A stretch of DNA of 64,000 bases from an uncultured Verrucomicrobiota bacterium (GTDB taxonomy: Bacteria; Verrucomicrobiota; Kiritimatiellia; CAIVKH01). The notes beneath the pieces were generated by a model. That model did no database searches. It saw only the letters and a list, made by a program, of their open reading frames with translations, and had not been told where the DNA came from. The position numbers and the translations under genes are program-made. This document shows positions 5,601-58,197 of this stretch, in pieces (position 1 is the stretch's first letter; every line of letters starts with the position of its first letter). The DNA lies in contig CAZCZZ010000002.1 of the NCBI GenBank assembly GCA_964503335.1, positions 50,164 to 114,163 on the forward strand, written 5' to 3'.

Positions 5601-8600
5601 ACATCCTCGACAACAACGCGCTGAACGACGACGGGCAGACGGGACAGTCCCAGGGCAATGGCACGAACGCCCTTGGCCAATCGTCATGGGTCAAGGCGCA
5701 GCGCGTGACGCCGACGATCGGGCTTATCAGCCAGTACCCGCTGGAGTGGCGCCTCAACTACAACAACGTCGCATCGAACGGAACGGCCGCGATCCAGGTG
5801 AAGCTTGCCGAGTTGTCTTCGTCCACCAACCCGCTGCTCTCCGACGTATCGGGCCACTTCCGAACGCTGACCCGCAATGTCAACGCGAATGGTCCTGCAT
5901 ACTCGATGTTTGTCGGCTGGCCGCAGAAGGACGGGGACACGGTCGGCGTGCCCTACAACATGAAGCTCTACTTCAGCCAGGCGCTGTGGAACTCCGACGA
6001 AGAGACTATTCGCAACCGCTTCCTCATCACGATCGACGGCGTGGCGCAGGGCCGCAGCGGCTACGACCTGAACTGGCAGGCCGGGCCGAACGGCATGCAC
6101 GAACTCGCATTCGACCTTCCCGACCTCTACAACGGCGATCCGAACTACCTGCATGAAATCGTCATCACGCACACCAACGCCGGCGGTGGCGGCATCACCT
6201 TGTACGGCAGCCGCTATGTGAAGGCTGCGAAGTCAACGACCGGCGCCACGGTCACGATTGTGGATCCGCCGGAGTTCAACCTCGACGGCGCGCCGTATGC
6301 GATCGTCCTGCCCGATGTGCCGAACCCCACGGCTCAGCAGCGCCAGTATAGCATCCGCGTACAGACGGATTCATCGGCGAAAAGCGTCTGGATTGAATTC
6401 ACGAACTCCGTGGGCTTCACAACGTCGATGCCCGGTTCGACCAATGCCCTGACCGGCACGGTCGCCGTCGTAGCGGGCAGCGCGAACGTGGTCGGGTCCG
6501 GCACGCTCTTCGACAGCCAGGTCACGGTCGGCAGCATCCTGCGCATCAGCACCAACCTCGCGATGGTATCGCGAATTGACTCGGCCACGAACCTCGTGCT
6601 GCGCGAGCCCTATCCCGGTCCCACGGCGGGCGGCTTGTCCGTCGATGTCGTTACAGGCAATCCGCTGCGAAATGGCAGCAAGCTGTTTTGGAACTTCTAC
6701 TGGACGAACATCACCACGGCGGGCTCCTACACGCTGATCGCAAAGGTCGATACGAACAACAATCCCTCGACGGTGGAGGCACAGGCCAGCCGGACCACGC
6801 GCGTCGTCTTCCGCGACTCCGTGTCGGGCGACATGGATTACGATGACGATGACGACGGCTTGATGGACGCCTCCGAGCTTGCGAGCACCAACCTGCCATC
6901 CACGAATCCGGAAACCTGGAACAACGGCCAGGTCCACATCTGGTACGTGTACGGCAAGACGGACCCCATGCTGCCGGACACGGATGGTGACGGACTTCCC
7001 GACGGCCTGGAAAGCGGCTGGCGCGGTGCCGATCCGGGCAACACGCAGACGAATACCGACACGAACGGCGACGGCTTCCCGAACTTCCGCGGCGACCGCG
7101 ACCCGCCGTTCTTCAACACGGTTCCCGATAACTGGGACGTGCCGGACTACAACTTCAACGACAGCCGCACGAAGCTCATCGCGGGATCGATGACCGATCC
7201 CAATAACGCAGACAGCGACAGCGACGGCCTGCCTGACGGGATTGAGGACAAGAATCGCAACGGTTGGGTGGATGGCGATGGCCTGGGACTCGGACCCGAT
7301 GATCCGAAGTCGGCGCGCCCCAATGCCGGCGACTGGCCCGACGGCATCGAGCAAAGCTGGGAAACATGGAGCGAGACGGATCCGAACAACTCGGATACCG
7401 ACGGCGACGGTGACGTCGATGGCCACGGCGAAGACAAGAACTTCAACGGCCGGATCGACGGCGACGCCAATTCAAATCGCGTGTGGAATGCCGGCGAGCT
7501 GTGGATTGAGACGGATCCCCTGAACGCAGACACGGACGGCGACGGCCTTCCGGACGGCTGGGAAACGCGCTACGGTCTCGATCCTTGGGACAGTGGCATC
7601 ATCGGTCAGATCAACCGCCGCACAGGTGCGACCATCACCAACGCGCTGAACGGAGCCGACGGCAACCCGGACGGCGATGTGATCGTGGTCGGCATCGCGA
7701 CGAATCCGTACAGCAATATCCTCGAGTTCCAGAATTCGACGCATCCCTTCATTACGGACAATGGCTCGCAGCCTCCCGCCGGCTCCGTGGTGATAGGACG
7801 CGGCCAGGTCCTGGGCGTTCTGGGCGGCGTCACGAACTACCAGGAATTCACCGAGTGGACGGCGGACGACCTGCTCGCCCTTGACGAATACGAAGGCGAT
7901 GGATTCAACGATGAAGGCGGCGACGTCAACCCGTCCTGGGTTGATATGGGCAACAACAACTGGCAGTTGGACGGCTTCGACACGTCGCGCGACATCGTGG
8001 CGTTCTATGCTCGCGACGGCGGGAACTCCGACGGGAAGTTCTACTTCCGCCTCGACTTCAATGACCTCCAGGCCTTTGCCGAAGACACCTATCTCGACAT
8101 CTACGTGGTCATCGACACGGGACAGCCGGGCGTCGGCGAGGTGAATCTGCCCGACGACGTCGATCTCACGACGGACATGAAGTGGGAGCTCGTTGTTGCC
8201 GCCTACAAGAGCGGACAGGGTGCCGTCTACGTCGATACGGATCACATCAACAACACAACCGCCGAGGGGCAGGCCTTGGATGCATCTGTCGGTGTCATCC
8301 GCCGCGATCAATCCACCGCCTCGGGCTTCATTGATGCGTACTACAATTCCGAGATGGATGCCGTCGAATTCTCCATCAGTCGTCAGGCCCTGATCGACGC
8401 GGGCTGGAATGGCCTGAATCCCGACACGCTGAACTACCAGGTGTTCGTCACAAAGGACGGCACGTGCAACTCGTGCGGCGCGGGCGGAAAAGCCGGTCCG
8501 GGCGATCTCGGCGGCCGTAACGATATTCGCGACACGATCTATGACGACGGGCTTGCCGAGGACAAGGGTGACAAGCAGGCGGGCATCGATGACATCCTCC

Positions 8601-37307: not shown

Positions 37308-38180
37308 GTGATGACCAGATCTGGGCTCAATTTATTGCCGGGGTGTATCGTTTTACTTGGCTCGCTGTTTGCAGGCTTTGTAGAGGCGCAGGATTTTCCT
37401 CTCTACGTCGCATCGAAGTATGTCATCGAGGATGAGGATGATCAGCCACTTCGGGGACTCGATCCAGCGGGAGAGGCCCTTGGACTCCCGAGGGAGAAGG
37501 GTGCCGTCGTTCAAATCCTCGGCGCAAGCGCCGGAATCTTCCCGCCCAATGCCGACGGTTCGCCCAATCTGCAGAATCCCTTGCTGGGCACTACACGTAC
37601 TGGCATCGGTGCCGCTCTTTCGCTCTCTGCGCGCGGTCGATTTGGCGCGACCGTTGTGCCCCGACCCACAACGCCTGTATTCGTCCGCGTATTTAATGGG
37701 CCGGAACTCGCGCTTGCGACGCGTTATGGCGATTCCCAGACCTTTGTGAGCGTGGACAACACGCCGTTTCTCGCCGACATCGAGGAGACGGGCGCTGCAT
37801 TTGCGACGGACAGCGATGGCGACGGACTGAACAACTACTACGAGGGCCTGCTCGGCTCAAACGCCAACCTGACCGACAGCGATGGCGACGGCGTGGCGGA
37901 CGGAGACGAGTACCGCGCTGGCTCTGGAATCGCCAACCCCTCCTCGTTCCTCGGCATCACCACGTTGAAGAAGGAAGCTTCCGGTTTCTGGACCATCGGT
38001 TGGGAATCCTCGACCGGGCGCACCTACTGCGTCGAATACAGCGGAATCGGCCTCTGCCAGGGACCAATCTACTCGATGGTCTGTCCCATGGTCACCGCTA
38101 CGAGCACCACGACCACCGTCCAGGCATCGATCCCCGGATCCGGCGGCGACGGCCATTTCCGCGTGAGGTTGATGGAATGA
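37308..38180 (+). CDS. Small secreted protein (290 aa) with a signal peptide and a dockerin-like double Ca2+-loop C-terminal module. Its stop overlaps the start of the downstream giant gene.
   Basis: N-terminal 'LNLLPGCIVLLGSLFAGFVEA' signal peptide; 'DSDGDGLNNYYEGLLGSNANLTDSDGDGVADGDEY' double loop. The TGA at 38178-38180 overlaps the ATG at 38177-38179. Confidence 0.7.
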   Translation: MMTRSGLNLLPGCIVLLGSLFAGFVEAQDFPLYVASKYVIEDEDDQPLRGLDPAGEALGLPREKGAVVQILGASAGIFPPNADGSPNLQNPLLGTTRTGIGAALSLSARGRFGATVVPRPTTPVFVRVFNGPELALATRYGDSQTFVSVDNTPFLADIEETGAAFATDSDGDGLNNYYEGLLGSNANLTDSDGDGVADGDEYRAGSGIANPSSFLGITTLKKEASGFWTIGWESSTGRTYCVEYSGIGLCQGPIYSMVCPMVTATSTTTTVQASIPGSGGDGHFRVRLME

Positions 38181-41100
38181 TTTCTCGTGATTCCCAAGCA
38201 GATGAAACGCGCGGACTTGGGGTTGAATATCCAATCCGGTGGAGCATAAATGTGGCTATAGAACCCAGATCGGATCGTCATGCCCGATCCACGTGCCTGC
38301 GACAAAGAGGATGGGCGACACATTCCGCGCTTCGCGTCGCGGCGCTCGCCACGGTCCTGACGGGGTCCGTCAGTCATGCAGAATTGCTGCTGGGGTTCGA
38401 TCTGCTGGGTCAAGGCGGTTCTCAAGTAACGACTACCAACACGGTTGCTGCAGCGAACATCTCGACGGCAGCGCCTAATGCCCGAATCACGAGGGGTTCG
38501 GGGCTTCAGTCAAGCACGGCAAGTGATTCCATGTCGTCCAGCAGCTGGACTTTGCCTGGGGCTGCCACGGTTGCGAATGCCATTACCAGTAATGACTATT
38601 TTACGGTGAGAGTGGTTCCTGAAGCGGGTTATCTTATCGACGTTACCAACTTCTCGTGGAGAACAACGCGAAGCGGGACAGGACCGACCAACTACAACCT
38701 TCGCGCCGGCAACGACGGTTTCGCGTCTGATATAGCGACTTGGCTCAACAAGGGTACTACGTCCAACTTCGTGACCACTGTCAACATTACCGGCTCCACA
38801 GGCGTGGAGTTCAGAATCTACGGCTACAGCACCCACAACAACGGCGGTACTGCACGAATCGCTCATGGTGCCGATTTTGGTCAATCGGGAATCGACTTGG
38901 CCATATTTGGCACGGTGAATGCGTCAGGTCCGGATGTTGGAGTCCTGGGTAATAACACGCTGGTCGCTGACGGCGACACTACGCCCGCCTATGCGGATCA
39001 TACCGATTTCGGAAACGTCGGACTCAATCAATCCAATCTGGTCCGTACTTTCACGATCACAAACAGTGGAACGGCTTCGTTGGGGGTTGGTAACATTACG
39101 ACGTCCGGAACTCATGCAGCGGACTTCATTGTGATCGCTCAGCCCTCGAACGCTCTTGCGGCTGGCACCATCTCCACCTTCCAAGTGCGCTTCGATCCGT
39201 CGGCCACCGGCACCCGCACCGCGACGATCCAGTTCACGAATGATGCAGCCGGCAAGTCACCCTACGACTTTGTCGTCCAGGGCACTGGCGTTGCTGCGGG
39301 TATCCTTCGCAGTCCGACGTCGATCACCGTCACGACGATGGTGGGCACAGCGCTCGGGACATCCAGCTTCGGGGTTACGAATGTCGGCCTCGGTCGCCTC
39401 GACTACACGATTTCGACAAACGCCGCGTGGCTCTCCGTATCGCCGACCTCAGCCAATCTCGCGGAAACGGGAGGGCAGCAGGAGACGATCACCTATAGCG
39501 TGACAGGACTCTCCGGCGGCACGTCCAACGCGACGGTCACGATCACGGATTCCAACGCATCCAACAGCCCGCAGACCGTCAGCGTCTCTCTCGTGCTCAC
39601 CAACATTCCCGATCCCACGGCGCAGAGTGCAACGGGTGATGGCAAGGAGATGATGCGGCTTGCGTGGACCAAGCACAGCTCCTTCAACGTGATGATTGTC
39701 TACCAGCTCGGCAGCGCCCCGGCCTCGCCCCAGCAGGGAACAGCCTACAGCGTGGGCGACAGCGTCTCCGGCGGCGGCACGGTCGTCTACAGCGGCACGG
39801 GTGCCACCCTTGAGCACGTCGTGCGGACCAATGCAACGCACTACTACGCGTTCTACTCGATCAACAATAACCACTACTCGCCGGGCGTCTCCGCGAACGC
39901 GGCCACGCCGGCTTATGGCGACGGGGAGATCGTGGACGCCATCGCGTACACCAACGGTGTGACAATCAACGGGGTGAACGGCGGCAACGGCTGGACCAGC
40001 GCGTGGTCCGTCGGTTCCGGCACGTGGACTGCGGAAACGTCCTCGCTGACCGTCGAAACCAACTACCCGACCGAGTATGCCAACCGCATCCGCGTGGCCG
40101 ATCCGGGCAACGGCGGCCAACCCTATGCGACGCGCAAATTCGCAGCACAGTCAAGCGGCACGCTCTATATGGCAGCTATCGTCAGCTACCAGTATCAGGG
40201 CCCGTGGAAGTTCGCTGGCTTCTCCTTTGTCTCGAATGCCACCGAGAAGGTCTTCATCGGCAAGATCCCGAACAGCGAGAACAACCGCTTCGGCTTGACG
40301 TCCACGCGGAATGCGACGGATTACAAGACGTCCGGCGTGACCCTTGGCGACTTCAACACCAGCACCGGCAACGTGTACCTGATGATCGGCACGTATGACT
40401 TCAGCACGCGCGACTTCAAGGCCAAGGTCTATCTGCGCACCACCGTCGTGCCCGAGACGGAACCGGGATCGTGGGATGTGGCGACCAATCTGCCCGCCAA
40501 TTACGCCAACAGCATCGACGGTATCCGGCTTGCATCCGGCGCATTGGGTGCTCCCGATGGAAGCATCGGCCAGACCCTTTATGACGAAATTCGCGTCGCC
40601 ACCAACTGGGCCGGCTTGCTGCGCATCGTGGCCGAACCGGAAATCGCCGTGCTGGGAACGAACAATGCCGTGGTGACGTCGGGCGATGCCTCGCCGGCGA
40701 CAGCGGATGGCACCGACTTCGGAAACGTTAACTTTGCCGGCAGTGTGAGTTTCACCAACGTCTTCTCGATCACGAATTCCGGCAACGCCAACCTCGTGCT
40801 CACCAGCATCAGCACAAGCAGCGCCATGGGCGCGAGCGCGGACTTTACGGTGATCTCGTGGCCGACGACCGTCCTGGCGGGAACGCGGTCGAATCTTGTC
40901 ATCGCCTTCAACCCTGAAACCACGGGCCTGCGCACCGCGCTTGTCAGCATCGCAAACAACGACTCCGACGAGAATCCTTACACCTTCGTCGTGCAGGGCA
41001 CAGGCACCGGCTATTTCGAGACCATCACGTTCCAGGGCTTCGAGGGATCGGGTACCGACACCTGGAATTACCTGTTCGTTTCAAACAACCCCGGAACGGA

Positions 41101-44100
41101 AATCTATGTCGATGGATCCACGAACGCCTCGGGCCTTTACGCCGTGGCCCTGCGTGGGTCGGCGAGTTCGAACGCCGATCCGTATGTCGAATTCGACAAC
41201 ATCGACATCAGCGCCTACGCCGTTGTGACCCTGCAGGTGGCGTTCGCAGTCGCCGGGATCGACAGCGGAGACGATCTCGAGCTGGATCTCTCCTACGATG
41301 GCGGAACAACGTGGAACGGACCCGGCAGCACGACGCTCGTCTTCGGCGCCAACAACACCAATCTCGGGTTCACGGGCATCGGTTCCACCACGGTGGCTTC
41401 GAATCCCTGGTTTGTGAGCCTGCCATCGACATCGAAGCAGGTGAAGGTGCGCATCCGGTTGGACGAATCGTCGAATGACAACTCGTTTGATCGCACCTTT
41501 GCTGACAATATCCGCCTTACCGGCGCGAATGCGGCGCCGCGCGTCCGCTTCAGTGCGGCGACGTACTACACCACGGAAACCAACGGCACAGTGACCATAC
41601 CGGTCACCATTTCCTCCTCCGCAGATGCCACCGTCCGCGTTGCGCTCGCCGGGTCGGCCCTGATCAACAGCACCAACGACTACACCGTCAACGGAACGAA
41701 CATCATCTTCGCGGCCGGCGGGACGACGACGTCGAACGTCGTGTTGACCCTGGTCGACGACACGGCCGCCGAAGGCCTCGAGGAGATCAACCTGCAGCTC
41801 GTGAATGGGCAGGGGACCGTGCCGGGTGATTCCGCTGTCACCGTGGTGCTGTTGCAGGATGACGATGCGTTTAGCGTCATGTCAGCCAACCTTACTGCCG
41901 GAACCAACATCGTCGACGGCACCTACACGTATGACGAAACGGCGCAGCGCATCATCCGCCGGCTTCGCCCGGACGTGCTGGCGATCCAGGAGTGGAAGTT
42001 CACCAACGCAAGTGCGCGTGCCTTCGTCGATTCCGTCCTTGGCACGAACTACTACTACTACATCGAGCCGGAGTCCGATCCCAACCCGATCCCGAACGGC
42101 GTCATCAGCCGCTGGCCGATCACCGTTTCCAACCAGTGGACTGACACGTTCGTGGGCGCCCGCGACCATGTGCAGGTGACCATCGACATTCCTGGTCCGC
42201 GTGACCTCCATGTAGTCTCGACACATCTCAAGGCAGGCACTTCGGATGCAGCCACGCGCCTTGACCAGGTGCGGGAACTCACCAACTACATCGCGACGGC
42301 GGCGTTCCCTACGAACGACTACCTCGTTGTGGCTGGCGACTTGAACCTGACGAACCGCACAGAGACGACGTTTGTCGTTCTGACGCAGGTGGTCACCGAT
42401 GCGCGGCAACCGGCCGATACGGAGGGCAACGTCAATTCAAGCCTCGGGAAGACCTCGCCCTTCGACCATGTCCTCCCGAACAACGTGCTCAACAACGTGC
42501 ACCTGACGAACCGCATGGCCGGCTTTGCCTTCACGAACGGCATGATCTTCGACACGGCCCAGTTCGACGATCACCTGCTCCCTGCGCTGGTGGAAGATTC
42601 CTATCCCACGAATCGCGCCCATCACGCCGTGCTCAAGCTCTTCAACTTGTCCACCGCCGCCGTGCCTCCCACCGTCACGACCACGATCGCATCCGCGACG
42701 AATCTCACGACGGCGACATCCGGCGGCAACGTTACATCAGACGGGGGTGCCTCTGTCACGAATCGCGGCGTCGTCTGGAGCACGAGTCCGGGTCCAACGG
42801 TCCCCGGACTGCAGACCACCAACGGCACAGGAACGGGCAGCTTCTCCTCGACGCTCACCAACCTGACTCCGGGCGGAACGTACTATTACAAGGCGTTCGC
42901 TCAGAACAGCGTCGGCACGGGCTACGGCGCCGAATACTCCCTCACGACGCCGTGCTTCTCGGGCATTGTCACCGGCCTTCTGGTCACCGTCACCAACGAC
43001 ATCGACTTCACGCTCACATGGAGCAATGTGCAGTATGCGACAGGATTCCAGCTCGATGTAGCCACCTCGGCGACATTCAGCACATCGGGTACGCAGGACG
43101 ATTTCACGGACGGCGACTTTACCAATAACCCTGCGTGGTCGGGCGACGCGACGGGCTATACGAATCTCACGGCTGGAACTTTACCGAGTGGTGTAGCCTC
43201 CACTGACGGAAATTACATCGGCAATCCCGCGTCGACCTCCGGCAACAACATCATGACCATCGCCTCGAGCGAGACGTCGGAATGGCGCTTCTCCCTGGGC
43301 AGTACGACCTTCAGCCCCTCGTCCGCCAATCACTTCGGCGTGATTCTCATGTCGGACAATGCTGTCCAGGGCGATGTCACGACAAACAGCTTCAACGGCT
43401 ACTATCTCCGTGTGGGTGTTGACGGCGCCACGGACTACCTTGAACTGTGGCGGAGCTCAGGCACGACCAAGACGAAGATCGGTGACTACACCACGCCGGG
43501 CAATTTCGGCGCCGACGGGCTTGAAGACGGTCTGGACCTGCGCATCACACGCAACGGAAGCGGCGTCTTCGAGCTGTTCTACGCTACCGGGTTCACGTAC
43601 GCCTCCACACCGACCAGCAACGGAGGAACGCTAACCAATACGACACATTCCAGCTCCTCCTACTTCGGCGTCTATTCGCGCTTCGCCAACACGGGTCGTC
43701 GCGTCTACATCGACAATATCCAGCTAGGGTCGGGCTCAAGTTCATATGTTGCAGGCTATTCAAACCGGGCAGTCGGCGCGACAAGCGCGACGGTGACCGG
43801 ACTAACCTCCGGTGCGACGTACTACTATCGCGTCCGTGCCACAAACGAATACTGCGTGAGCGCCAATTCCGTGACCGGCACCGTGACCACGGTGCTTCTG
43901 GCGCCGGACATCGCCGTCTATGGCAACAACACGCTGATTGCGGACGGCGACACGACGCCGGCTTATGCGGACCACACCGATTTCGGAAGCGTCGGCTTCA
44001 TCAACTCGAACCTTGTGCGCACGTTCACGATCACCAATACCGGCACGGGTTCACTCACCCTGGCCAACGTCACCACGAGCGGAACGGCTGCGGCGGACTT

Positions 44101-47100
44101 TATTGTGCTGTCGCAACCATCTACACCGGTCGCCGCGGGCGGAACCACGACGTTCCAACTTCGATTTGATCCGTCAGCGACGGGATTGCGCACGGCGACC
44201 GTCCAGTTTGCGAACAACGTAACCGGGAAGAATCCCTACGACTTCGTGGTGCAGGGCACGGGCGTTGCGGCGGGCATCCTGCGCAGCCCGACCAGCATCA
44301 GCGTGACGTCGATGGTGGGCAGCGCCCCGGCGGCGGCAGGGTTCGGCGTGACGAATGTCGGCCTGGGCCAGCTCATCTACACGATCAGCACCAACGCCCC
44401 GTGGCTCTCGGTGAGCCCGACCGGCGACACGCTCTGGGAGACGGAGGGCCAGCAGCACACGGTGAGCTTCAGCGTGACCGGATATGGCGCGGGGACTTCG
44501 AATGCCACGGTCACGATCACGGACAGCAACGCGTCGAACAGTCCTCAAACGATCGCGGTGTCGATGGTTCTGACCAATATCCCGGATGCCACCTCGAACG
44601 TGGCCACGAACGACGGAAGTGAACTGATCCGTATTGCGTGGACAAAGCCCGGGAGTCTCGATGTCATGATCGTGCACCGCGGTACCAATGCGCCCGTCGC
44701 GCCGACGCAGGGCACTGCGTACAACGTGGGCGACGCCGTCGGATCCGGTGGCGGTCGCGTCGTGTATAAGGGTGGCGGCGCGTACCTTGATCACGTTGTC
44801 AACCCGGGTAGCGACAATTACTACGTCTTCTACGCCGTGAACAACAACCACTACTCGCCCGGAGTCACGAACGTGGCGACGACACCGGCCTACGGCGCGA
44901 GCGAGCGCGTGGAGCAGTTCGGCTATACCAACGGCGTGTCGTTGAGCGGGCTTGGCGGGGGCAATCTCTTCACGAGCACCTGGTCGGTGGGGGCGGGCAA
45001 CTTCACGGTCCTGAGCAATGGCCCGACGCCGAACCTTTACGCCAACACCAATTATTCGGCCGAGGCGGCGCAGCGCGTGGTGAGCAGCAACTACGTCAAC
45101 GACACCGAAATGCGCGCGAGCCGGCGCTTTGCGGCGATCACCAATGGCTCAATCTACATCTCGTACCTCGTCGCCGTGGAATACGGTGGCGCGGGCAAGT
45201 ACACGGGCGTCCGCGCGTTGTCGAACACCACGGAACGATTCTTCGTCGGCGAAGGCGGAGGCAATGACCTGCTCGCCATCGATGGCTACGGAGGTGGCAT
45301 CCAGAACACGGCCTTCAACATCAACTCCTTCCAGTCGAATACCGGAAACGTCTACCTCGTCGTCGCACGCTATATTTTCAGCAGCAACCATGTCTCTGTG
45401 AAGGGCTACTACCGGACCGATACCGTGCCCGAGGCGGAGCCGGCGAGTTGGGATACATCCGTAACGGCCAGCAGCGACCGGTCGTACATCGACGGCATTG
45501 AAATCGTCAGCGGCGGCTTCTCCGGCAACCAACCAGGCCTTGTGGCCTTTGATGAAATCCGCGTCTCGACCAACTGGGCGGGCATCGTTCCTCCGTCGGG
45601 TGTCCCCGGAATCGGTGTCAATCCCTCCAGCGTGACGGTGTCGGTCATGCGCGGCTCAAGTCCTGCCGCCCAGACGTTCACCGTGACGAATGTCGGCCAG
45701 GGCGCCCTCAATTACAGCATCTCAACGAGCGTGAGCTGGATAGCCGTCGCACCGGTTGCCGGGTCGTTATCGGCCTTCCTGGGGCAGATCCACACCTCGT
45801 CGTTCAACACCGTTTCTCTCCCCGTCGGCACGAATATCGCCACGGTGACCGTCACGGCACCGCTTGCGTCCAACTCGCCGGTCACGGTCACCTACAACGT
45901 CATTGTGACGAACATTCCGCCGCCCACGAACGTGATCGCCAGCGCCGATGGCTACGAGATGGTCCGCCTCGGGTGGTCCCCGCCGCCCGGCCTGCCGACC
46001 GTGATGATCCTGCACGACGATGTGCCGATTGCCACGGATCCCTCGCAGGGAACGCTATACAATGTGGACAGCGCGGTGGGGCTCGCGCGCGTCATCTACA
46101 AGGGAACGAACACGTCGCTGGAGCACATCGTGGCGCCGGGATCCACGAACCACTACGCATTCTACGCGGTGAACGGGAACTACTATTCCACGGATGGTTC
46201 GTACACCGTCATCGAGTGTCCGGACACGACCGCGACCAACCTTGTAGCCGGTGACATTGCCATCTTCGGCTTGAACACGCTGACATCCGGCAGCACCAAC
46301 TACGACAGCTTCGGGTTCATCACGCTCACGGACCTGCCGACGGGGACGGCGATCAACTTCACCGACAATGGCTGGCGGAGCAACGACACCTTCAGGACCG
46401 GTGAGGGAACGATCACATGGTCGGCCACGAGTTGCGTGCCTGCGGGAACGGTGATCCGCTGGATCTCGACGAACACCCCGCAGGTCACGGTCGGAAGCAT
46501 CACGACCAATTCCTCATTCGCCCCGAATATCGACGGCGAGCAGGTGCTGGCCTACCAGGGCCCGGCAACCAACCCCACGTTCATCTATGCCCTCGGATCG
46601 CACACCGATGGCGTCTGGCACGTTGACGCGACGGATACGCATGAGTCCGCCTTGCCGCGTGGATTGACGAACGGCCTGACGGCCGTCGTCATCGCCGAGC
46701 TCAACAATGTTGTCATCAGCACAAACACGCTGGCGATTTCGGGCGATCGCGCCGCCATCCTCTCCTACTTTGGCAACACGAACAACTGGGTGGGCGATGA
46801 CAGCATCATCTTCGACCTCCTTGCGTACAACTTCTCGTTCCCCGACCTGAACACCAGCGGCGGCGGCGTGATGACCAATGTCACGATGGGCTTGTACCGT
46901 ACGAACGAAATCGTCGATGTGTTCGCGTACACGAATGGAAACTCGATCTCCTCGCCGGCGCGAAACGGTGGTTGGGGCTGGACCTCGACCTGGACCGGAG
47001 CGGCGGGAACGTGGACAGCCCTCACGAACAACACCGCCGAGATCTCCTTCCCCTCACAGCCCCTGTATCCGACGAATGCTGCAAATATCCTCAAGCTCAC

Positions 47101-50100
47101 GGATCCCGGCGTCAGCACGACCGGCCGCATGCATCGCTATTTCCAGGCTGTCACGAACGGTAGCCTCTATTTCTCAGGCTTCCTGTCCTACCAGTATGAA
47201 GGCTTTAACAAGTTTGCAGGCTTCAGCTTCATGAGCGGCGGGGCCGAGACCGGTTTCATGGGCAAGATCTCTTCGCCGAGCCATAGCTTCACGCTCGGTA
47301 TAGACACGTATGGAGGCTCCCGCGTGTTCGCCGCCTACGACCTGCGCGGCCAGGAGAACAGCACCAACAACACCTACCTGATCGTCGGCAAATACGACTT
47401 CGATACGGACCTGATCACGGTGCAGTCGTACTACCGCGGCGTTGCGGTGCCTGACACGGAGCCCGCGGATTGGGCCGCCACCGCGACCGTGTCCGGCGCG
47501 GGCATCTCCCTCATCGATGGCATCCGCGTCCACGGCGGCGCCGATGTGGGCACGATCGGCAATTGCTACTTTGACGAAATCCGCGTCGCGTCATCATGGG
47601 GCGCCCTGATCAACAGGAATCCCCCGACGGTCCTCACGCGACCCGTCTCCAACATCCTGATCTCCGCCGCAACCGGCGGCGGCGAGGTCACCTCGGATGG
47701 TGGCGCGACCGTCACGAATCGCGGCGTGGTGTACAGCACGAATGCGCTGCCGGTCTTGACCGACAGCCGGACATCCGATGGCACGGGCACCGGGATCTAC
47801 GCCAGCGTCATGACCAACCTGATCGCGGGCGAGACCTACTATGTGCGGGCCTATGCCCAGAACGCTGCGGGCACGTCGTTTGGCGCCGTCTCCAACTTCA
47901 CGACGCTGTGCTTCACCTCTGTCGTGACGGGCCTCTACGCGAACCCGACAAACAGCACAGACTTTACTGCAAACTGGTCGGCCCTTACCGGAGCGGCCCG
48001 CTACCAGCTCGATGTCTCCTCCGTATCCAACTTCACGGGCAATGCCCCGAACTACGGCGTGGAGGTGTTCACCAACATCGGCGGCGGCACATCGAGCAGC
48101 TACCTGCAGCGCAACTGGACGAATAACAATATCGCCTGGAGCGCCTTTGGCGCGCGCACGGACCAGACCATCGATGGCGCGGCGATTGCGCTGGAAGACG
48201 CGAGCGGTGCCTACATTGTCAGCGGCAGCATCACAGGCGGCATCAGTGAGCTGTCCGTGGTCCACCAGATGAAATTCTCGGGCGTGGGCAGCACGTTCGA
48301 CATCTTCGTCAACTCGACCAAGGTGGCGACCAACGTCGCCTTTGATGCCAACATCCAGACGGCGCGCGTGACAGGAATCAATGTCAGCGGCAGCTTCACG
48401 ATCTCGATTTCCAACCGGGCCACATCTGCGGAGCAGTTGGCCCTGGATACGCTGACGTGGACGAATGACAGCTCCGCCGGCTCGTTCATTGCCGGGTATG
48501 ACTCGCGCTCTGTGACGGGAACGAGCCAGAGCGTCACCGGACTCCTTGAAGGCGCCACGTACTACTTCCGCGTGCGCGCCGTTGGCGGCGGCTCGTGCGT
48601 CAGCGGCAACTCATCCACGGTCACCGTGGTCACCGTGGACAACCGGGGACCAAGCCTCTTTGCCTTCAATGTGGACAACAGGACCAATACCGACGCGATG
48701 ATCCGGAACGGGTTCGCAGTCACAGGCCTGGTGTACGATGCAGGGTATGGTGTCTCCAATGGCGTGAGCACACCGTACTACCTGATCCGGAACAATGCGG
48801 GCACTACGGTTGCAGCATCAAACAAGTTCACAACGGCGCCCGCCAATGGTTCGGTCGTGACCGGGAATCTCGCCGGCACCTTCAGCGCAGTGCCGCAGGC
48901 CGACGTGACGCTGGGCATCTACACCGCCATCGTCGGAGCAGTCGATCTGGTTCCCAATGTAAGCGTTTCGAACTTCTTCTTCACGGTGGTGGACGACGAC
49001 ACGAACATCCCCGAGCAGGTTACCCTGATGTCGACCAATACCGGCGGCGGCAACCTGCGCTTCATGCAGATTTCAATCGGCGCCGCCAATATCACGTTGG
49101 GTGGGGGCGCCACCTCCAACCTGTTCTATCCGACGACGGACGGCGCCCTCGCCGCTGTGGCCGCGGCAAATCCGCTGCTCTTCTGGATGGGCGCGCGCGA
49201 TGAATCCGGGCTCAATCGCGGTACCAGCACCCCGACGACCAACATGAACTTCACGCTCGATGCGATCGTGATCAGCAACACGGCGAACTTCGACGCGACG
49301 CGCAGCTCCAGCTTCGCGAGCACGACCAATACGCGCGCGACCAATGTCTGGGCCTGGACATCGCCGTTCACAAGCGACGAGCTGACGACCTTGATCACCA
49401 ACACCGTCAACGGCCTCGGCACGAATCGCATCAGCCTCAGCCTCTTTGACGCAGATGACGACCGGATTGGCGATGCGTTGACGCTGATCGACCGCCAGTA
49501 CGGATATCTTGTCGTGACGGACGATGACACGGTTGTTCCGACGGTGGGATCGACCGATATCAACGGCGTCGGCGCCGCCGGCCAGCTGTACACCATCTTC
49601 ACCGAAACCATGGGCACCGCCGGCACCAGCGGGGAGAGCATCGCCACGCACGAGACCAACAACCGCTTCGACAACACGGCCTTTACCATGAGTGGCACAG
49701 GCGACGCCCGCACCACGACGGCATCCACCGGCTACGACGGCGCATCGGGCTCGTTCAATATTCTGCTCAACGCCGTGGGCGAGACTTTCATCATCGCCGA
49801 CATCAATTCGTCGGCATACACGAACATGAGCCTGGTCTTCGGTGTGTACAAGAGTTCCACCTCGGAGAACGGCTCGAGCCTGGTCGTTGAAGTGAGCACG
49901 AATGGAACGACATGGAACACGCTGACCATTCCGGCGCTGCCCACGGGCGCGGGCACCGCCGACTGGTATTCGCGCACCAATTCCGCAGGGACGATACCAT
50001 CAGGCACGAATCTCCAGATCCGGTTCACCGGCAACACCACGTCCGAGCTCCGTCTTGATGACGTGAAGCTCATCAACTTGATCACGGACGTCTCGCTGAC

Positions 50101-53100
50101 CGACGGACAGATCGCGTCCGGCGGCTACGTTGTCACGTCCCGTGTCAGCGACGCCACCAGCGGTATCGCCGTGAGCAATGCGTTCGCCCCCAGTTACCTC
50201 ATCCTCAACCAGCTCGGCAACCTCGTGGTCTCGAACACCTTCACCACGCCCTTCGCAAACGGCGGAGGCCTGACGCTCACATCGGTGTATTCGACCGCCG
50301 CCGCGGCTGTCAGCACCAACGTGGTCACGTTGGGGATCTATACGACAACGGTCTATGTGACGGACGCCGATGCGGACCGGAACGGCGACCGACTTTCCAG
50401 CACCGGCACGCCGTTCAGTTTCACGGTGATCGATGATGACACGAACGCGCCTGTTGTTTCGGCCTTCCAGCTTGCGGGCGGCACAACCAACTTTGACCTG
50501 AGCCTTGGCTCCATCGCCATAACCGGTCTCCTGACCGATGCATCGAGCGTTCAGTACGGCGGCCTCACCCACATCCTGCTCCTCGACAACACCGGAGGCA
50601 TTGCCCAGAGCAACAGACTCTTCGCCGGCACTGGCTCGGCGGCTACCGGCACGCTGTCCGACGCCGGACTGAACTGCGGCAACATCTATACGGTCCGGCT
50701 GTTCGCGGCGGACGCCGACCTTGATCGTCCCGCGGACCAGCTCTTCGTGACGAACATGGCCCTGGTGATCCAGACCACAGGCACGGGCGGTCCCGCAGAC
50801 TATCCGATCGCGAGCAACCTGCTGGTAAGCGGCTCCACGGCGGCGCCGACGACCACGGTATTCGACGCAACCATTCGCACGGGCGGTTGGAGCCTCGCCA
50901 TGAGCCTGTCGCATCCCGTGGGCGTGTTTACCAATGCGACATCGCCGTCGTTCCGTGTGACCAACCTGGTCGCAGAGGTTATTGCGTTGATGCCCTGGAG
51001 CAACGCGGTGCAGTCGGGCAACACCTACTTCTTCACGAACGCGCCGCTGCCCGGCGCGGCCTACGCATCAGTCAACACGGGCATCCATTTCGTGGTGTGG
51101 TCCGCCAGCAACCAGGGCTCGTGCGTGGCCAGCATCATCGACCGTCCCGTCATCACCGGTGGCACGAACGTATTCGCGGTCGTGGATGAAGACGAGGCCG
51201 TGCCGGTCCTGAGCGGCTTCACGCTCCCGGGCGGAGGCAGCACAGTCTCTGTGGCGACTGCGTTCTCCGGATTTGCCATCACGGGCCTGATCCAGGACGC
51301 GGGCAGCGGCGTGGCCTTCACCTCGCAGCCGCCCTATGCCCTGTTCTATGACGTCAGCGGAAGCGTGCTGGCGAGCAACGCGATGCTTGGCGGAACGGAG
51401 GGCAATGGAACGTCGCCCGTCGCGTTCACCAACTGGTTCTCCGGCATCACCCTGAGCTGTGGAAACTTCTACACGGTGCGGGTCTTTGCGGCGGATGCGG
51501 ATAATGACCGCGCCAGCGACCGGACCTCGGTGAGCACCAATGTCATGGTCGTGGCGACGGAAGGATCCGGCGGCGATGCGCCGACAGCGCAGGACCTCCT
51601 CGTCAACAACACGGCCGCATCGTCTGTAACGCTGTACGACGAAACGATCGCTACAGGCGGATGGCAGGTTGCCCTCGTCATGTCGCACTCCTCGGGCAAT
51701 ATCGTCACCAACGGCCCGAATGCCCCTTCGTTCCTCGTCCAGAACCAGACAGGAACGCATGTCTATTCCACCTCTCCGCTGGTCTGGAGCAACATCGTGA
51801 AGTCAGGCGTGACGTACTACGCGACGAACACGCCGATGCCCGCAGCCAACACAAACTGGATTACGACGGGAACGTACAGCTTTGTCTGGTCCGCCCAGAG
51901 CGACGGTCTCTGCTTTGGAGTGACCAACGGAAGCGGCAATATCAACCCCGGGACGAACAAGTTCCTCGTGGTCGACGACGATGTGATTCCGCCGAACATG
52001 TCCGGCATCAGCGTGGCAGGGGGTACAGGCTCGGTGAGCGGTGCCTCGGACTGCGCGGACCCCACGGCGACCAATCTCCTCGCGGGAGACATAGCGATCT
52101 ATGCGATCAATACCAAGACAGGGTCGGGCACAAACAACGACAGCTTCGCCTTTGTGGCCCTCGTCGATATTCCGACCGGAACGCAGATCAAGTTCACCGA
52201 CAACGGATGGAAGAGCAGCACCGCATCGTTCCGCAATAACGAGGGCACGATTACCTGGATGGCGACGGGCTGTGTCCCTGCGGGCACATCCATTCGCTGG
52301 ATCGCCACGAACACGCCGCTGGTGAGCAGCGGGCAGATCATCGCCACCAACGGAACGTTCGCCCCCAACATCCAGGGCGAGCAGATCCTCGCGTATCAGG
52401 GATCTGAAAGCAGCCCGAACTTCCTGTATGCGGTCAACGACCGCCTGAACGGCATCTGGGACGTGGACGCGGTTGACTCCCATTCGTCCGCGATTCCTCC
52501 CGGCCTGATCGATGGCTACACGGCTGTAGCCGTCGGCGAGTTTGATAACATCATCATCAACACGAACAACCTCACGATCACCGGGGATCGAGACCAGATC
52601 CTCTATTACATTGGCGACAAAGACAACTGGATCGGGTCCGACACCAATGTGTTCGATCTTCTCCAGTTCAACTTCACATTCCCCGACGCCAACGCGGGCG
52701 GTGGCGCAGTAACGGACCAGGACATTCTGTTCGGCGGCTGGAGCATCACGGGCCTCGTGCAGGATGTCGGGAGCGGATTGCTCGTCAGCAACGGTCCCGC
52801 GCTTCGCTATGTCGTCCTGAACACGAACTCCGGCGTCGTGGTGTCCAACTACTTCTACACGACCTTCACGAATGGCACGAAGGTCGAGCAGAACCTCTCC
52901 AATGCGGTGAGCGCAGGCAGCTACAGTCTCAACCAGCTCGGCACCTTCACGGCCCAGCTCTACGCGGCGGATGCCGATGTGGACCGGATCGCAGACCACG
53001 CCGAGCGCAATACGAACGTGCCGTTCCAGGTTGTTGATGATGACACGGACTACCCGCAGATCGGCTTCTTCTATATCAACGGCCAGACCACGATCACCAA

Positions 53101-55503: not shown

Positions 55504-58197
55504 ATGAAAAACATCGCAGTCTGTATTGTCGCCATGCTCCTGGCCCTTCACGACGTTGGAGCTGCCCAGATTGGCATCTACACATTCACCGGTGCCACGG
55601 GCGACGAGGCCACGTTGCCTGTAGACACACAGCCCAGCAACGCCGTCTTCTCGGTCATGAGCCGTGGGTCGGGATTGACCGCCTCAGCCGCGGCGAACAC
55701 GTTCAGCGCATCGGGTTGGACCACGGGCGCGCTGGACACGAATGACTACTACGAATTCTCGATTACGCCTGCCGACGGCGCATCCGCTACGTACACAAAT
55801 CTCAGCTTCACGGAGAGGCGGTCCGGCACGGGAATCGGCTCGTGGTTGCTTGCCAGCAGCCTTGATGGCTACGCGAGTGGCATTACAAACTTCACGGTGC
55901 CGGATAACACATCGGACCGGAATCACTCCATCCTGTTAGGGCCGGCATTTGCCGGTCTGTCATCCATCGTGACCTTCCGCTTGTATGGGTTTACCTCCGA
56001 GGCAGCCGGCGGGACGTGGCGCGTCGATAACGTCGCGTTGTCCGGCGACATCACGGGTGGCGGAGGCGGACCAGCAACCAATGTACAGTTCACAGCCTCG
56101 TCAGCATCCGTGAGCGAAGCGGCGGGTTCGTACACTGTCACGGTGTTCAAGACGACCGCGGACGGCAATGTAAGCGGGGAGGTCGCGATAAGCGGCACAG
56201 CCACCCAGGGAATCAGCGACGACTACACGATCGACACGACGAACTTCACCATGAATGGCGCGACGACATCAGCGACGTTTGTCGTCACACTCAACAACGA
56301 TACGAACACAGAGCCGTCGAAGACTGTGGGCCTGACCCTGGCCAATGTCACCGGCGGTACGATCGTTTCGCCTTCCGTCTTTACGCTGACGATCACGGAT
56401 GATGATGTCCCGCCGGTCCCCGCCGAGGGCATCGCGGCGTTCCGCTTCACCTCCGGTCCGCATCTCGCCGTGACGACGAAAGAGACGAACATCACTGTAA
56501 CGACAGTCGCGTTGTCGAGTGGGACCATTGAAACCAATCAGACGACGGGCACGGTGTTCCCGAATGAGCCGTTCATTCAGGAATCGTCCTGGACAGCGTC
56601 GAGCCAGGCGTCGGCCAAACGGTTCCAATTCACAATCACGCCTGATTCGGGTTACCAGGTGTCGGTCACCGGCATCAGCTTCCGCGCGCTTGCCACGGGT
56701 TCCGGGCCGACTGCGTTTGGCTACGACATCGGAGGGCTCGCCAGTTTTGCAGCGAACTTCACGAACGATGTACTCGTCGTTGTGAGCCAGTCTGTTGCGG
56801 GAGTTGATAACCAGACAGGTCCCGTCCTGATCCAGATTCAGGGCTGGACCAATGGAACGCGTGCTTCCAGCGGCGTGGGCGATTTTCGTCTCGATGATGT
56901 CGTTGTTTTCGGAACCATCGAAACCGCCGCAGTGACGACGAACGTCCGCTTCACGGCGTCATCGGCCACCGTCGGCGAAGCTGCCGGCACGCACAATGTC
57001 ACCGTCTTCAAGAATCTTGCCGACGGGAACGTGTCCGGCGAAATTGGCCTGGGCGGCTCTGCCACGATCGGTGGCGGAAACGACTACACGATCAACACCA
57101 CGAATTTCGCCCTCAACGGCGCCACAACCTCCGCGACCTTCACGATCACCATCAACGACGACGCGGCGGTCGAATCGACGGAAACGGTAGTCCTGACCCT
57201 GGCCAATGTGACCGGTGGCGATGTGGCGTCACCCTCAGTCTATACGCTGAGCATCACGAACAACGATGTGGCCCCCCCACCGTCATTCAACGTGTGGATC
57301 AATGAGCTGCACTACGACAATCAGGGTCCGGATACAGACGATGGGTTCGAAATTGCTGGCGCATCGGGGACAGACCTCTCCAGCTACAACCTGCTCCTCT
57401 ACAATGGCAGCGTACCTGGTACGATTGGCCAAGTGTACAGTAACCGTGTGCTGTCTGGAGTCATACCCAATCAGTCGAATGGCTATGGTGCGGTGTGGTT
57501 CAGCTATGACAATGGTGCCGGAAACGGTACTCAGAACGGTCCGGATGGCGTAGCCCTTGTCGTAAACACCACAACCGTAATTCAATTCCTCAGCTATGAG
57601 GGGACCATTCTCGCCGTCAACGGGGCGGCATCCGGAATGACATCCGAGGATATCGGTGTCGTGGAAGCCGGGACAGGGACCAATTTGACGGTGCTGAACA
57701 ATTCACTCCAGTTGTGTGGTACCGGCACGAATTACGCATCATTCGCATGGGCGACGAATTCGCCCAATACCCGCGGTCTGATCAATGCCTGCCAGTCGAT
57801 TCCCGGCGGCGGTGGTGGCACGGATGACGATGGCGACCTGCTGCCGAATGACTGGGAGACGCAGTATTTCGGCGGCGCGACGAATGCCACGGCGAATGCG
57901 GACAACGACAGTGATACGTACCTGAACATCGAGGAGTTTGTCGCGGGCAGCGTGCCGACGAACGGCTTGTCGTATCCCCGCGTGAGCGTGGTGACCGGGG
58001 TGGCGGCGGGTCAGCAGGTTCAGTTCCCATCCACGACAGGTCGCTTGTATTGGGTCGATTACCGCACGAACCTGCTTGCGGGTGACTGGCAGAATCTGCA
58101 GTCGAACGTGGCCGGATCGGGCGCGACGCTGCTCATCACCGACACGAACGGTGCACCGCAGAACAGCTACCGCTTCGGCGTGAAGATGGCGCCCTGA
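55504..58197 (+). CDS. Secreted 897-aa protein: signal peptide; two copies of an N-terminal beta-sandwich module, each followed by a Calx-beta domain; a lamin-tail domain (LTD); a dockerin-like double Ca2+ loop; and the shared C-terminal beta-domain.
   Basis: AGGAGA RBS 8 nt upstream of ATG 55504. 'MKNIAVCIVAMLLALHDVGAA' is a signal peptide. LTD signature 'VWINELHYDNQGPDTDDGFEIAGASGTDLSSYNLLLYNG'. Calx-beta units end in 'TLTITDDD' and 'TLSITNND'. Confidence 0.85.
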   Translation: MKNIAVCIVAMLLALHDVGAAQIGIYTFTGATGDEATLPVDTQPSNAVFSVMSRGSGLTASAAANTFSASGWTTGALDTNDYYEFSITPADGASATYTNLSFTERRSGTGIGSWLLASSLDGYASGITNFTVPDNTSDRNHSILLGPAFAGLSSIVTFRLYGFTSEAAGGTWRVDNVALSGDITGGGGGPATNVQFTASSASVSEAAGSYTVTVFKTTADGNVSGEVAISGTATQGISDDYTIDTTNFTMNGATTSATFVVTLNNDTNTEPSKTVGLTLANVTGGTIVSPSVFTLTITDDDVPPVPAEGIAAFRFTSGPHLAVTTKETNITVTTVALSSGTIETNQTTGTVFPNEPFIQESSWTASSQASAKRFQFTITPDSGYQVSVTGISFRALATGSGPTAFGYDIGGLASFAANFTNDVLVVVSQSVAGVDNQTGPVLIQIQGWTNGTRASSGVGDFRLDDVVVFGTIETAAVTTNVRFTASSATVGEAAGTHNVTVFKNLADGNVSGEIGLGGSATIGGGNDYTINTTNFALNGATTSATFTITINDDAAVESTETVVLTLANVTGGDVASPSVYTLSITNNDVAPPPSFNVWINELHYDNQGPDTDDGFEIAGASGTDLSSYNLLLYNGSVPGTIGQVYSNRVLSGVIPNQSNGYGAVWFSYDNGAGNGTQNGPDGVALVVNTTTVIQFLSYEGTILAVNGAASGMTSEDIGVVEAGTGTNLTVLNNSLQLCGTGTNYASFAWATNSPNTRGLINACQSIPGGGGGTDDDGDLLPNDWETQYFGGATNATANADNDSDTYLNIEEFVAGSVPTNGLSYPRVSVVTGVAAGQQVQFPSTTGRLYWVDYRTNLLAGDWQNLQSNVAGSGATLLITDTNGAPQNSYRFGVKMAP
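57288..57700 (+). other. Lamin-tail domain (LTD) in the 897-aa protein.
   Basis: 'INELHYDN...D..FEI.G.....LS.Y.L.LYNG' matches the LTD consensus found in ExeM/NucH-type extracellular nucleases. Confidence 0.7.

Follow-up and report, generated by a model that had tools for sequence, protein, structure and literature searches.

The window analysed here is a stretch of 64,000 nucleotides of contig CAZCZZ010000002.1 from an uncultured Verrucomicrobiota bacterium, and among the very long open reading frames (ORFs) that it encodes is the one below called giant protein 2, a paralogue of giant 1 located upstream. Residues 1177–1550 of giant protein 2 were found to consist of a Calx-beta domain followed directly by a domain of the endonuclease/exonuclease/phosphatase (EEP) superfamily. 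We regard the identity of this Calx-beta+EEP cassette, with residues 1290–1550 as the EEP domain, as practically certain and the catalytic competence of the EEP domain, judged from its conserved residues, as likely. The substrate is proposed tentatively to be extracellular nucleic acid. The stretch 41525–42650, on which a preliminary description had been based, reads as quoted there and lies as a whole, in frame, within the ORF at 38000–55474 on the forward strand.

The EEP domain and its catalytic residues

The features of the cassette are as follows, in window coordinates.

38000–55474, forward strand: ORF of giant protein 2, uninterrupted, 5,824 codons.
41528–41863, forward strand: Calx-beta domain (Pfam PF03160), residues 1177–1288, with acidic motifs 'LVDDTAAEGLEE' and a terminal 'QDDD'.
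41858–41866, forward strand: DDD junction, residues 1287–1289, 2 residues ahead of the first EEP strand and invariant in five giants.
41867–42649, forward strand: EEP catalytic domain, residues 1290–1550.
41888–41890, forward strand: N1297 (in ANL), the first EEP landmark.
41990–41992, forward strand: E1331 (in IQEW), predicted metal-binding Glu.
42224–42226, forward strand: H1409 (in VSTHL), equivalent of DNase I H134 and of H151 in sphingomyelinase (SMase).
42338–42346, forward strand: D1447-L-N1449 (in GDLN), aligning with SMase 'GGDMN'.
42464–42466, forward strand: D1489 (FD of 'FDHVL'), heading a strand and aligning with beta-toxin 'LDYIF'.
42467–42469, forward strand: H1490, not a catalytic landmark.
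42617–42622, forward strand: A1540-H1541 (in 'RAHHAVLKLF'), with the terminal catalytic His at codon 42620–42622.

When a 575-aa piece of giant protein 2 was scanned against Pfam, Exo_endo_phos (PF03372) was matched at residues 1316–1495 (E 4.3e-10, 40.2 bits vs a gathering score of 24.5), and in a 5,000-aa context the match at 34.6 bits was still above this score. The structure model shows the four-layer alpha/beta sandwich that defines the EEP superfamily. With Pfam matches to both domains, and with the EEP fold indicated by sequence and by model, the proposal that a Calx-beta and EEP cassette is embedded in a secreted protein of several thousand residues was borne out.

To identify the conserved residues two alignments were used, one of the window domain with 14 homologues from a first-pass search and a main one of 243 sequences (238 family members and five giants) taken from an exhaustive hidden Markov model (HMM) search and a genome scan. 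Nine residues, N1297, E1331, H1409, D1447, N1449, D1489, D1518, D1533 and H1541, are 100% conserved in the 243 sequences. Seven of them follow the order of EEP catalytic residues (N, E, H, D-x-N, D, terminal H) and are invariant in the 238 relatives as well as in the five giants. The landmarks N1297, E1331, H1409 and D1447/N1449 are thereby those that the preliminary description had pointed out, but its reading of 'FDHVL' as the D-H landmark has to be corrected. While D1489 is invariant, H1490 is variable (H/H/F/F/V in the five giants and Y/W/F/V/A in the wider family) and the true His is H1541, which still falls within 41525–42650.

In an hhalign comparison of the family profile with bovine DNase I, which had a probability of 4% and covered the H...GD.N segment only, H1409 meets DNase I H134 and GDLN meets 'GDFN'; H1409 also aligns with the His of SMase 'GTHLQA'. 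An equivalent of H1409 is found in DNase I and SMase-type EEPs and is not known from those of the ExoIII/APE1 type, and the domain is therefore placed with the former. EEP enzymes carry their terminal His just before the last beta-strand (DNase I H252, APE1 H309), and in the model H1541 lies immediately ahead of the last beta-strand (model residues 258–264). Since the comparison with DNase I is uninformative for the C-terminal motifs, the registration of H1541 rests on this position together with its family-wide invariance. In other EEPs the Asp equivalent to D1489 orients the terminal His. D1489 corresponds to D438 of Mycobacterium tuberculosis Rv0888, the most sensitive residue in mutagenesis of that enzyme, with a 92% loss of activity in D438A (PMC4733049).

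The residue preceding H1541 is Ala in the window, Ala or Thr in the five giants and Gln in 100% of the 238 other members, so that the Asp of the canonical D-H pair is missing family-wide. In Rv0888 the exchange D472A, at the equivalent of the missing Asp, costs only 15% of the activity (PMC4733049), and its absence is therefore no argument for inactivity or against membership of the EEP superfamily. Other invariant features are specific to the family: D1518, D1533, R1388 and a PAD..GN.NTN..R loop could not be mapped to any counterpart in known enzymes.

By analogy with the EEP superfamily, E1331 together with N1297, D1447 and N1449 would bind Mg2+/Ca2+ and the scissile phosphate, the role of E1331 being assigned through DNase I E39 and SMase E53, which we take to be its equivalents. 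H1541, oriented by D1489, would activate the water and H1409 would assist the leaving group. The whole module would then be a Calx-beta beta-sandwich, fused without linker to a divalent-metal-dependent phosphodiesterase of EEP fold, about a quarter along a secreted protein of ~5,700 aa.

The Calx-beta+EEP unit, its family and the orthologous giants

The Calx-beta call is in itself borderline, since PF03160 scored 28.7 bits (E 1.5e-6) on the 575-aa piece but only 25.7 bits when the 5,000-aa piece was scanned, against a gathering score of 27. An HMM was built from the copies in the five orthologous giants (self-score 2e-54) and recovered the domain in relatives that score 58–103 bits for Pfam Calx-beta. 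With this HMM Calx-beta was found adjoining EEP in 34 further family members, 35 of 244 altogether, in proteins spanning 375 to >3,800 aa. The distance from the end of the domain to the first EEP strand is 3 residues, in agreement with the earlier statement that Calx-beta stands directly ahead of EEP, and most of the 35 proteins share the junction [RQ]-D-x-D-[SA]-hydrophobic-x-hydrophobic-x-[SA]-A-N. Both nearest non-giant relatives, Kiritimatiellae L005 and L006 (47–49% identity to the window EEP), have the same arrangement. This recurrence argues for an inherited two-domain unit, rather than a lone hydrolase beside a stray Calx-beta repeat, and, as far as can be judged from the sequences, what entered the giant is the Calx-beta+EEP pair and not a single hydrolase. 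The acidic 'DD...E..EE' and terminal 'DDD' motifs of a Ca2+ site can be read in the domain and are predicted to bind Ca2+. With these motifs ending at the junction, Calx-beta would most likely serve as a Ca2+-rigidified spacer or positioning element.

A word-indexed homologue search with the EEP domain gave 14 relatives of at most 43% identity, all 271–431 aa long and with signal-peptide or lipoprotein-like N-termini. An exhaustive profile search, in which each representative stands for a cluster at 50% identity, revealed 2,933 representatives at E<=1e-3, of which 583 reached E<=1e-30; the best 150 range from 255 to 3,015 aa. When one genome per species was scanned, 246 EEP-family loci were found, mainly in Verrucomicrobiota, Kiritimatiellae and Myxococcota, and the best match to the window EEP (79% identity) came from the metagenome-assembled genome (MAG) of an uncultured Verrucomicrobiota. 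Multiple copies in one genome are frequent in Archangium, Cystobacter and Myxococcus, as seen for the predatory Archangium gephyra (L027, L028, L063) and Cystobacter fuscus (L035, L043), and many of the myxococcal paralogues have a C-terminal extension of ~230–260 aa.

The EEP domain had been described as normally free-standing, which does not hold for this family. Among 163 representatives 47 are shorter than 400 aa, 83 measure 400–700 aa and 33 are longer, so that single-domain members make up only ~29%, and most have Ig-like, LTD (lamin tail domain), PPC or Calx-beta partners. In the 81 multidomain members the commonest Pfam partner is LTD (18), followed by PPC (9), Big_13 (7), He_PIG (6) and Calx-beta (6), besides assorted other Ig-like modules. 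The closest relatives by architecture combine LTD with Calx-beta+EEP: in P0121 (1,901 aa) LTD is followed by Calx-beta and then by EEP, while in P0140 (3,015 aa) LTD is N-terminal and a Calx-like+EEP pair lies mid-chain. No NCBIfam equivalog covers the family when the window cassette and the 81 relatives are scanned. A fusion of EEP with a ComEC membrane part, suggested by one NCBIfam ComEC match, was rejected, as neither multiple hydrophobic segments nor an HxHxDH motif occur in any member of the family; the match probably reflects an MBL-type (metallo-beta-lactamase) domain only.

Four Verrucomicrobiota MAG contigs (L001–L004) encode collinear orthologues of giant protein 2, with 52–68% identity over 800–1,900 aa; their ORFs extend past the loci examined and, in L001 and L004, past the contig itself. 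The cassette keeps its position in all four. Among the giant orthologues identity is 62–78% in EEP but 53–59% in the adjacent Calx-beta and every catalytic residue is kept, which speaks for purifying selection acting on an active enzyme.

At the same time the giant clade replaces seven positions that are 92–100% invariant elsewhere, G1378N, F1390H, W1392Q/H, A1393V, R1484K, M1539R and Q1540A/T (window 42131–42178, 42449–42451, 42557–42559 and 42614–42619), and lacks R1520, which is invariant elsewhere within the same range. The nearest non-giant Calx+EEP relative, L005, retains the family-typical residues at these sites. Since the five giants agree on the new residues, or vary between no more than two, these are read as a selected new state and not as decay. 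Taken from the alignment, this suggests a shift in specificity or packing tied to the giant context; some of the exchanges may compensate for one another in the packing of one hairpin, and others may move a positive charge near the active site.

Substrate of the domain and competing explanations

To place the domain among known enzymes it was compared with secreted and cell-bound EEP hydrolases. Like ExeM/NucH/Xds of Shewanella, Aeromonas and Vibrio (LTD+EEP), it belongs to a secreted, cell-associated EEP protein with accessory beta-sandwich domains, and LTD is a frequent partner among its relatives. ExeM requires Ca2+ plus Mg2+/Mn2+ and remains cell-bound (PMC6085458). However, GlyGly-CTERM is absent from giant protein 2, the window EEP is compact (about 260 aa) while that of ExeM spans almost all of its 871 aa, and the carrier is about 7 times larger. 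With SMase C and Staphylococcus aureus beta-toxin (PDB 2ddr, 2uyr, 1zwx, 7cne, 3i5v) the domain shares the S-x-H, GD-x-N and h-D-h-h-h motifs and a W-P-I strand (GVISRWPI vs AIVSKWPI). It differs from them in its terminal A-H (Q-H in the family) where SMases have D-H and in extra loops (PAD..GN.NTN; D1533-S), and SMases are stand-alone toxins of about 300 aa. M. tuberculosis Rv0888 (SpmT) is likewise an EEP associated with the cell envelope and has the landmarks N, E, H, D-N, D and (D-)H, but it is 490 aa long, has another anchoring domain and keeps the D-H pair. It has been reported both as a Ca2+/Mn2+-dependent nuclease (PMC4733049) and as a sphingomyelinase (PMC5893642), and one surface EEP can therefore hold both candidate activities. 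Bacteroides thetaiotaomicron BT3563, similar in function as a surface EEP associated with outer membrane vesicles, is surface-exposed and degrades extracellular matrix DNA (PMC8851478), although it is a lipoprotein of ordinary size. By the tests applied to its sequence the window domain belongs to the EEP superfamily but lies outside ExeM/NucH, the SMase C equivalog and the DNase I-like group, the last because neither DNase I nor CdtB gave a profile match at E<=1 against solved structures. By analogy it would functionally resemble the cell-bound hydrolases ExeM, BT3563 and Rv0888. On the question raised earlier, whether it is of ExeM/NucH or SMase type, it passes neither family model.

A surface nuclease acting on extracellular nucleic acid, for scavenging of phosphorus and nucleotides or for remodelling of matrix DNA, is the function considered most likely, though with a confidence somewhat short of even since the substrate is the weakest step of the proposal. 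Giant protein 2 consists mostly of Ig-like repeats, and the enzyme would therefore be kept at or near the cell surface and not be released. LTD is the partner domain of ExeM/NucH nucleases (PMC6085458) and at 18 of 81 the commonest one here, which favours nucleic acid, as do the LTD+Calx-beta+EEP proteins P0121 and P0140. Of the gene contexts seen for the family, that of P0014 on a 2.95-Mb contig (L081 6891–10468) is the most clearly nuclease-like and points in the same direction: Endonuclease_1 (PF04231) and two EEP genes follow one another on one strand, and genes for thymidine kinase and a DHH/DHHA1 phosphoesterase are close by. So does P0007, a relative with N-terminal TSP3-like Asp-rich repeats, which divergently adjoins a pilMNOPQ type IV pilus operon in two independent contigs (L082 3150–8969, L083 149–5968). 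BT3563 (PMC8851478) and Rv0888 (PMC4733049), as surface EEPs that are proven DNases, are also counted in favour, as is the presence of H1409.

Several observations weigh against this function. The window cassette gave no match to NF033681/NF033680 (ExeM/NucH) and giant protein 2 none to the Pfam LTD, both at E<=0.01, and Ala1540 stands in place of the Asp of the 'SDH' motif. The gene neighbourhoods of six free-standing relatives are inconsistent (one nuclease row, one pilMNOPQ, one lipase/MBOAT and three uninformative), and with seven otherwise invariant positions replaced the specificity of the giant EEP may differ from that of its relatives. The domain is moreover acidic (isoelectric point, pI, about 5, net charge -11; family median pI 4.8), a property that does not discriminate for DNA binding because bovine DNase I is acidic too. 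The evidence on substrate is thus divided, which agrees with the initial caution that it cannot be predicted from motifs alone.

It is possible, if unlikely, that the domain is instead a sphingomyelinase or phospholipase-C-like lipid phosphodiesterase that attacks (sphingo)phospholipids in membranes, be they of neighbouring cells, prey or vesicles; the PLD domain in giant 1 would be its partner lipid enzyme. SMase C and beta-hemolysin are its best solved relatives (E 4e-6 with the single sequence, 1e-7 and 1.3e-9 with profiles) and TDP2 comes only second (E 2e-3), but these alignments reach only the central third of the domain. The SMase model TIGR03395 is the sole NCBIfam catalytic model touched by the window cassette and is touched weakly by 9 of the 81 relatives (the ExeM model by 1 of 81); the score of 26.6 bits is however to be seen against a cut-off of 248.2. 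The model contains a beta-hairpin inserted between D1489 and H1541 (model residues 219–232), its tip aromatic (AGFAFTNG; consensus of the family G...FP.G), which presumably lies roughly where SMases (2ddr and 3i41) have their hydrophobic membrane hairpin, although the aromatic residue is <85% conserved. One relative adjoins a GDSL lipase and an MBOAT gene, which speaks for lipid and against nucleic acid, while the LTD partners point the other way. The PLDc_2 match in giant 1 would suit a lipid substrate but is neutral, because PLDc_2 includes nucleases too.

The lack of a match to any characterised subfamily could fit hydrolysis of some other extracellular phosphoester, such as phosphorylated glycans, teichoic-acid-like polymers, nucleotides or inositol phosphates, for phosphate scavenging beside the giant upstream that bears glycoside hydrolases. 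The partners are mostly generic Ig-like or adhesin-like modules, the alpha-amylase and GH57 domains of the ORF at 2663–11122 suggest a polymer-foraging locus, and the unmapped D1518, D1533, R1388 and PAD loop would suit a different substrate. This is nevertheless improbable, with nothing positive for any specific substrate of this kind and with nucleic acid explaining the LTD association better. A catalytically dead binding or structural module kept in the scaffold could account for the Ala before the terminal His and for the seven replacements and lost R1520 of the giant clade, but is very improbable when the seven core catalytic residues are kept in five orthologues at 62–78% identity, the clade itself conserves the replacements, the Asp is missing family-wide and its loss in Rv0888 D472A is of so little consequence. 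Hardly credible is a polymorphic-toxin or contact-dependent effector in which EEP would be a DNase toxin delivered into competitors. Polymorphic toxin systems typically feature giant secreted proteins that bear nuclease domains (PMC3482391) and giant 1 has PATR repeats of autotransporter type, but EEP is internal (residues 1290–1550 of 5,824) and not C-terminal, the C-terminal ~530 aa are 41% identical to giant 1 instead of variable, the cassette is collinear across four orthologues and no small immunity-like gene follows giant protein 2, the next ORF being an 897-aa Calx-beta protein. The toxin reading was accordingly rejected on architecture.

The carrier protein, neighbouring genes and implications

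The remaining features of giant protein 2 and of the surrounding locus are the following.

38252–38380, forward strand: putative signal peptide of giant protein 2, ...HSALRVAALATVLTGSVSHA / ELLL, ending ...SVSHA.
38933–40633, forward strand: upstream copy of the scaffold module of ~580 aa, residues 312–878 (NCBIfam choice_anch_D).
43823–45592, forward strand: downstream copy of the scaffold module of ~580 aa, residues 1942–2531 (Pfam DUF1573 / HYDIN-like Ig).
53870–55471, forward strand: C-terminal domain of ~530 aa, common to giant 1, ending ...VRNMNP.
14946–37031: giant 1, 7,361 aa, with PATR repeats and two PLDc_2 units and no EEP.
2663–11122, forward strand: third very long ORF, 2,819 aa, with an N-terminal alpha-amylase catalytic domain and GH57 at residues 2072–2260.
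55504–58197, forward strand: ORF directly 3' of giant protein 2, 897 aa, with a signal peptide and two Calx-beta domains.

The TTG at 38000 is a mechanical ORF start that overlaps the 3' end of the TSP3-repeat ORF at 37308–38180, and the true start of giant protein 2 is probably GTG 38252 (residue 85), with GGAG 8 nt upstream. When the translation was inspected by eye a basic N-region, a hydrophobic core and an A-x-A-like end were seen at this N-terminus, and the protein thus probably has a signal peptide and is secreted. In the Pfam and NCBIfam scans EEP is its sole recognised catalytic domain, the remainder comprising choice-of-anchor D/HYDIN-like Ig, DUF1573, BACON_2, fn3-like and unannotated sequence. 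Downstream of EEP, at window 44441–44623 (residues 2148–2208), a sub-threshold match to PBP, the phosphatidylethanolamine-binding protein family, was seen (E 1e-4, 23.1 bits vs a cut-off of 24); if real, it would represent a module that binds phospholipids or anions.

Giants 1 and 2 are paralogous, sharing the repeated module of ~580 aa and the C-terminal ~530–570 aa (41% identity, ending R-N-[IM]-N-P). In BLASTP the upstream scaffold copy of giant protein 2 matches giant 1 residues 1320–1892 (44% identity, E 2e-115), the downstream copy residues 1292–1889 (42%, E 5e-101) and the C-terminal domain residues 6792–7361 (E 3e-102). This last domain, for which the Pfam and NCBIfam scans gave no family match, is a candidate for anchoring or export. 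The two scaffold copies flank the region with the Calx-beta+EEP cassette, and the catalytic inserts of the paralogues differ, two PLDc_2 units in giant 1 and Calx-beta+EEP in giant 2. A cassette swap at a homologous scaffold site was considered but is unsupported, as the flanks of the inserts are not homologous. The parallel drawn earlier with a PLD domain in giant 1 holds, with a PLDc_2 match at E 5.5e-25; a phmmer search of this PLD region against PDB gave no match at E<=0.01.

With the third long ORF the locus thus encodes three giant proteins, with hydrolase domains in each. It is doubtful, though conceivable, that giants 1 and 2, and perhaps the amylase/GH57 giant, form a surface enzyme-on-scaffold system with a common scaffold and C-terminus and interchangeable hydrolase cassettes, in which the captured EEP would have shifted to a different substrate than its free relatives. 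The 897-aa Calx-beta protein, residues 52–174 of which resemble giant protein 2 residues 163–287 (33% identity), could serve the giant system as an accessory surface protein. The ORFs at 2663–11122, 37308–38180 and 55504–58197 end in a similar short motif (...NRFYRIDVRLPQ, ...GHFRVRLME and ...NSYRFGVKMAP), unlike the RN[IM]NP of giants 1 and 2, which they may share as a signature of C-terminal sorting or of a beta-sandwich. The locus is chromosomal, with genes for PNPase, endonuclease III and succinyl-CoA synthetase nearby; an identical endonuclease III protein is found on 12 metagenome contigs.

Enzymatic domains inside giant repeat proteins are already known in bacteria of the Planctomycetes-Verrucomicrobia-Chlamydiae (PVC) group. 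The Omnitrophota giant genes likewise encode secreted proteins of several thousand residues with enzymatic domains among repeats, though these reach >30,000 aa and have other domain sets (bioRxiv 10.1101/2023.11.21.568195); a term search of the text of that paper found neither 'nuclease' nor 'Calx'. With the two-domain unit present in numerous environmental bacteria, the find of Calx-beta+EEP is real but fairly ordinary, and with either substrate it would be an incremental addition to the surface-tethered EEP hydrolases and no new principle. It does give a concrete catalytic handle on an otherwise opaque protein of 5,800 residues from an uncultured Verrucomicrobiota lineage. It also delineates a sizeable, so far uncharacterised subfamily of secreted EEPs (583 clusters at 50% identity). 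Its members are common in Verrucomicrobiota, Kiritimatiellae and predatory Myxococcota, are without the canonical D-H pair and often occur as a Calx-beta+EEP unit. The main interest lies in this widespread Q-H/A-H subfamily, in the fixed Calx-beta+EEP module and in the clade-specific exchange of family-invariant residues in the giants. If the lipid-directed function were true, EEP together with the PLD of giant 1 would indicate membrane attack; a surface nuclease, on the other hand, would bear on the way in which these abundant polymer degraders obtain phosphorus from extracellular DNA.

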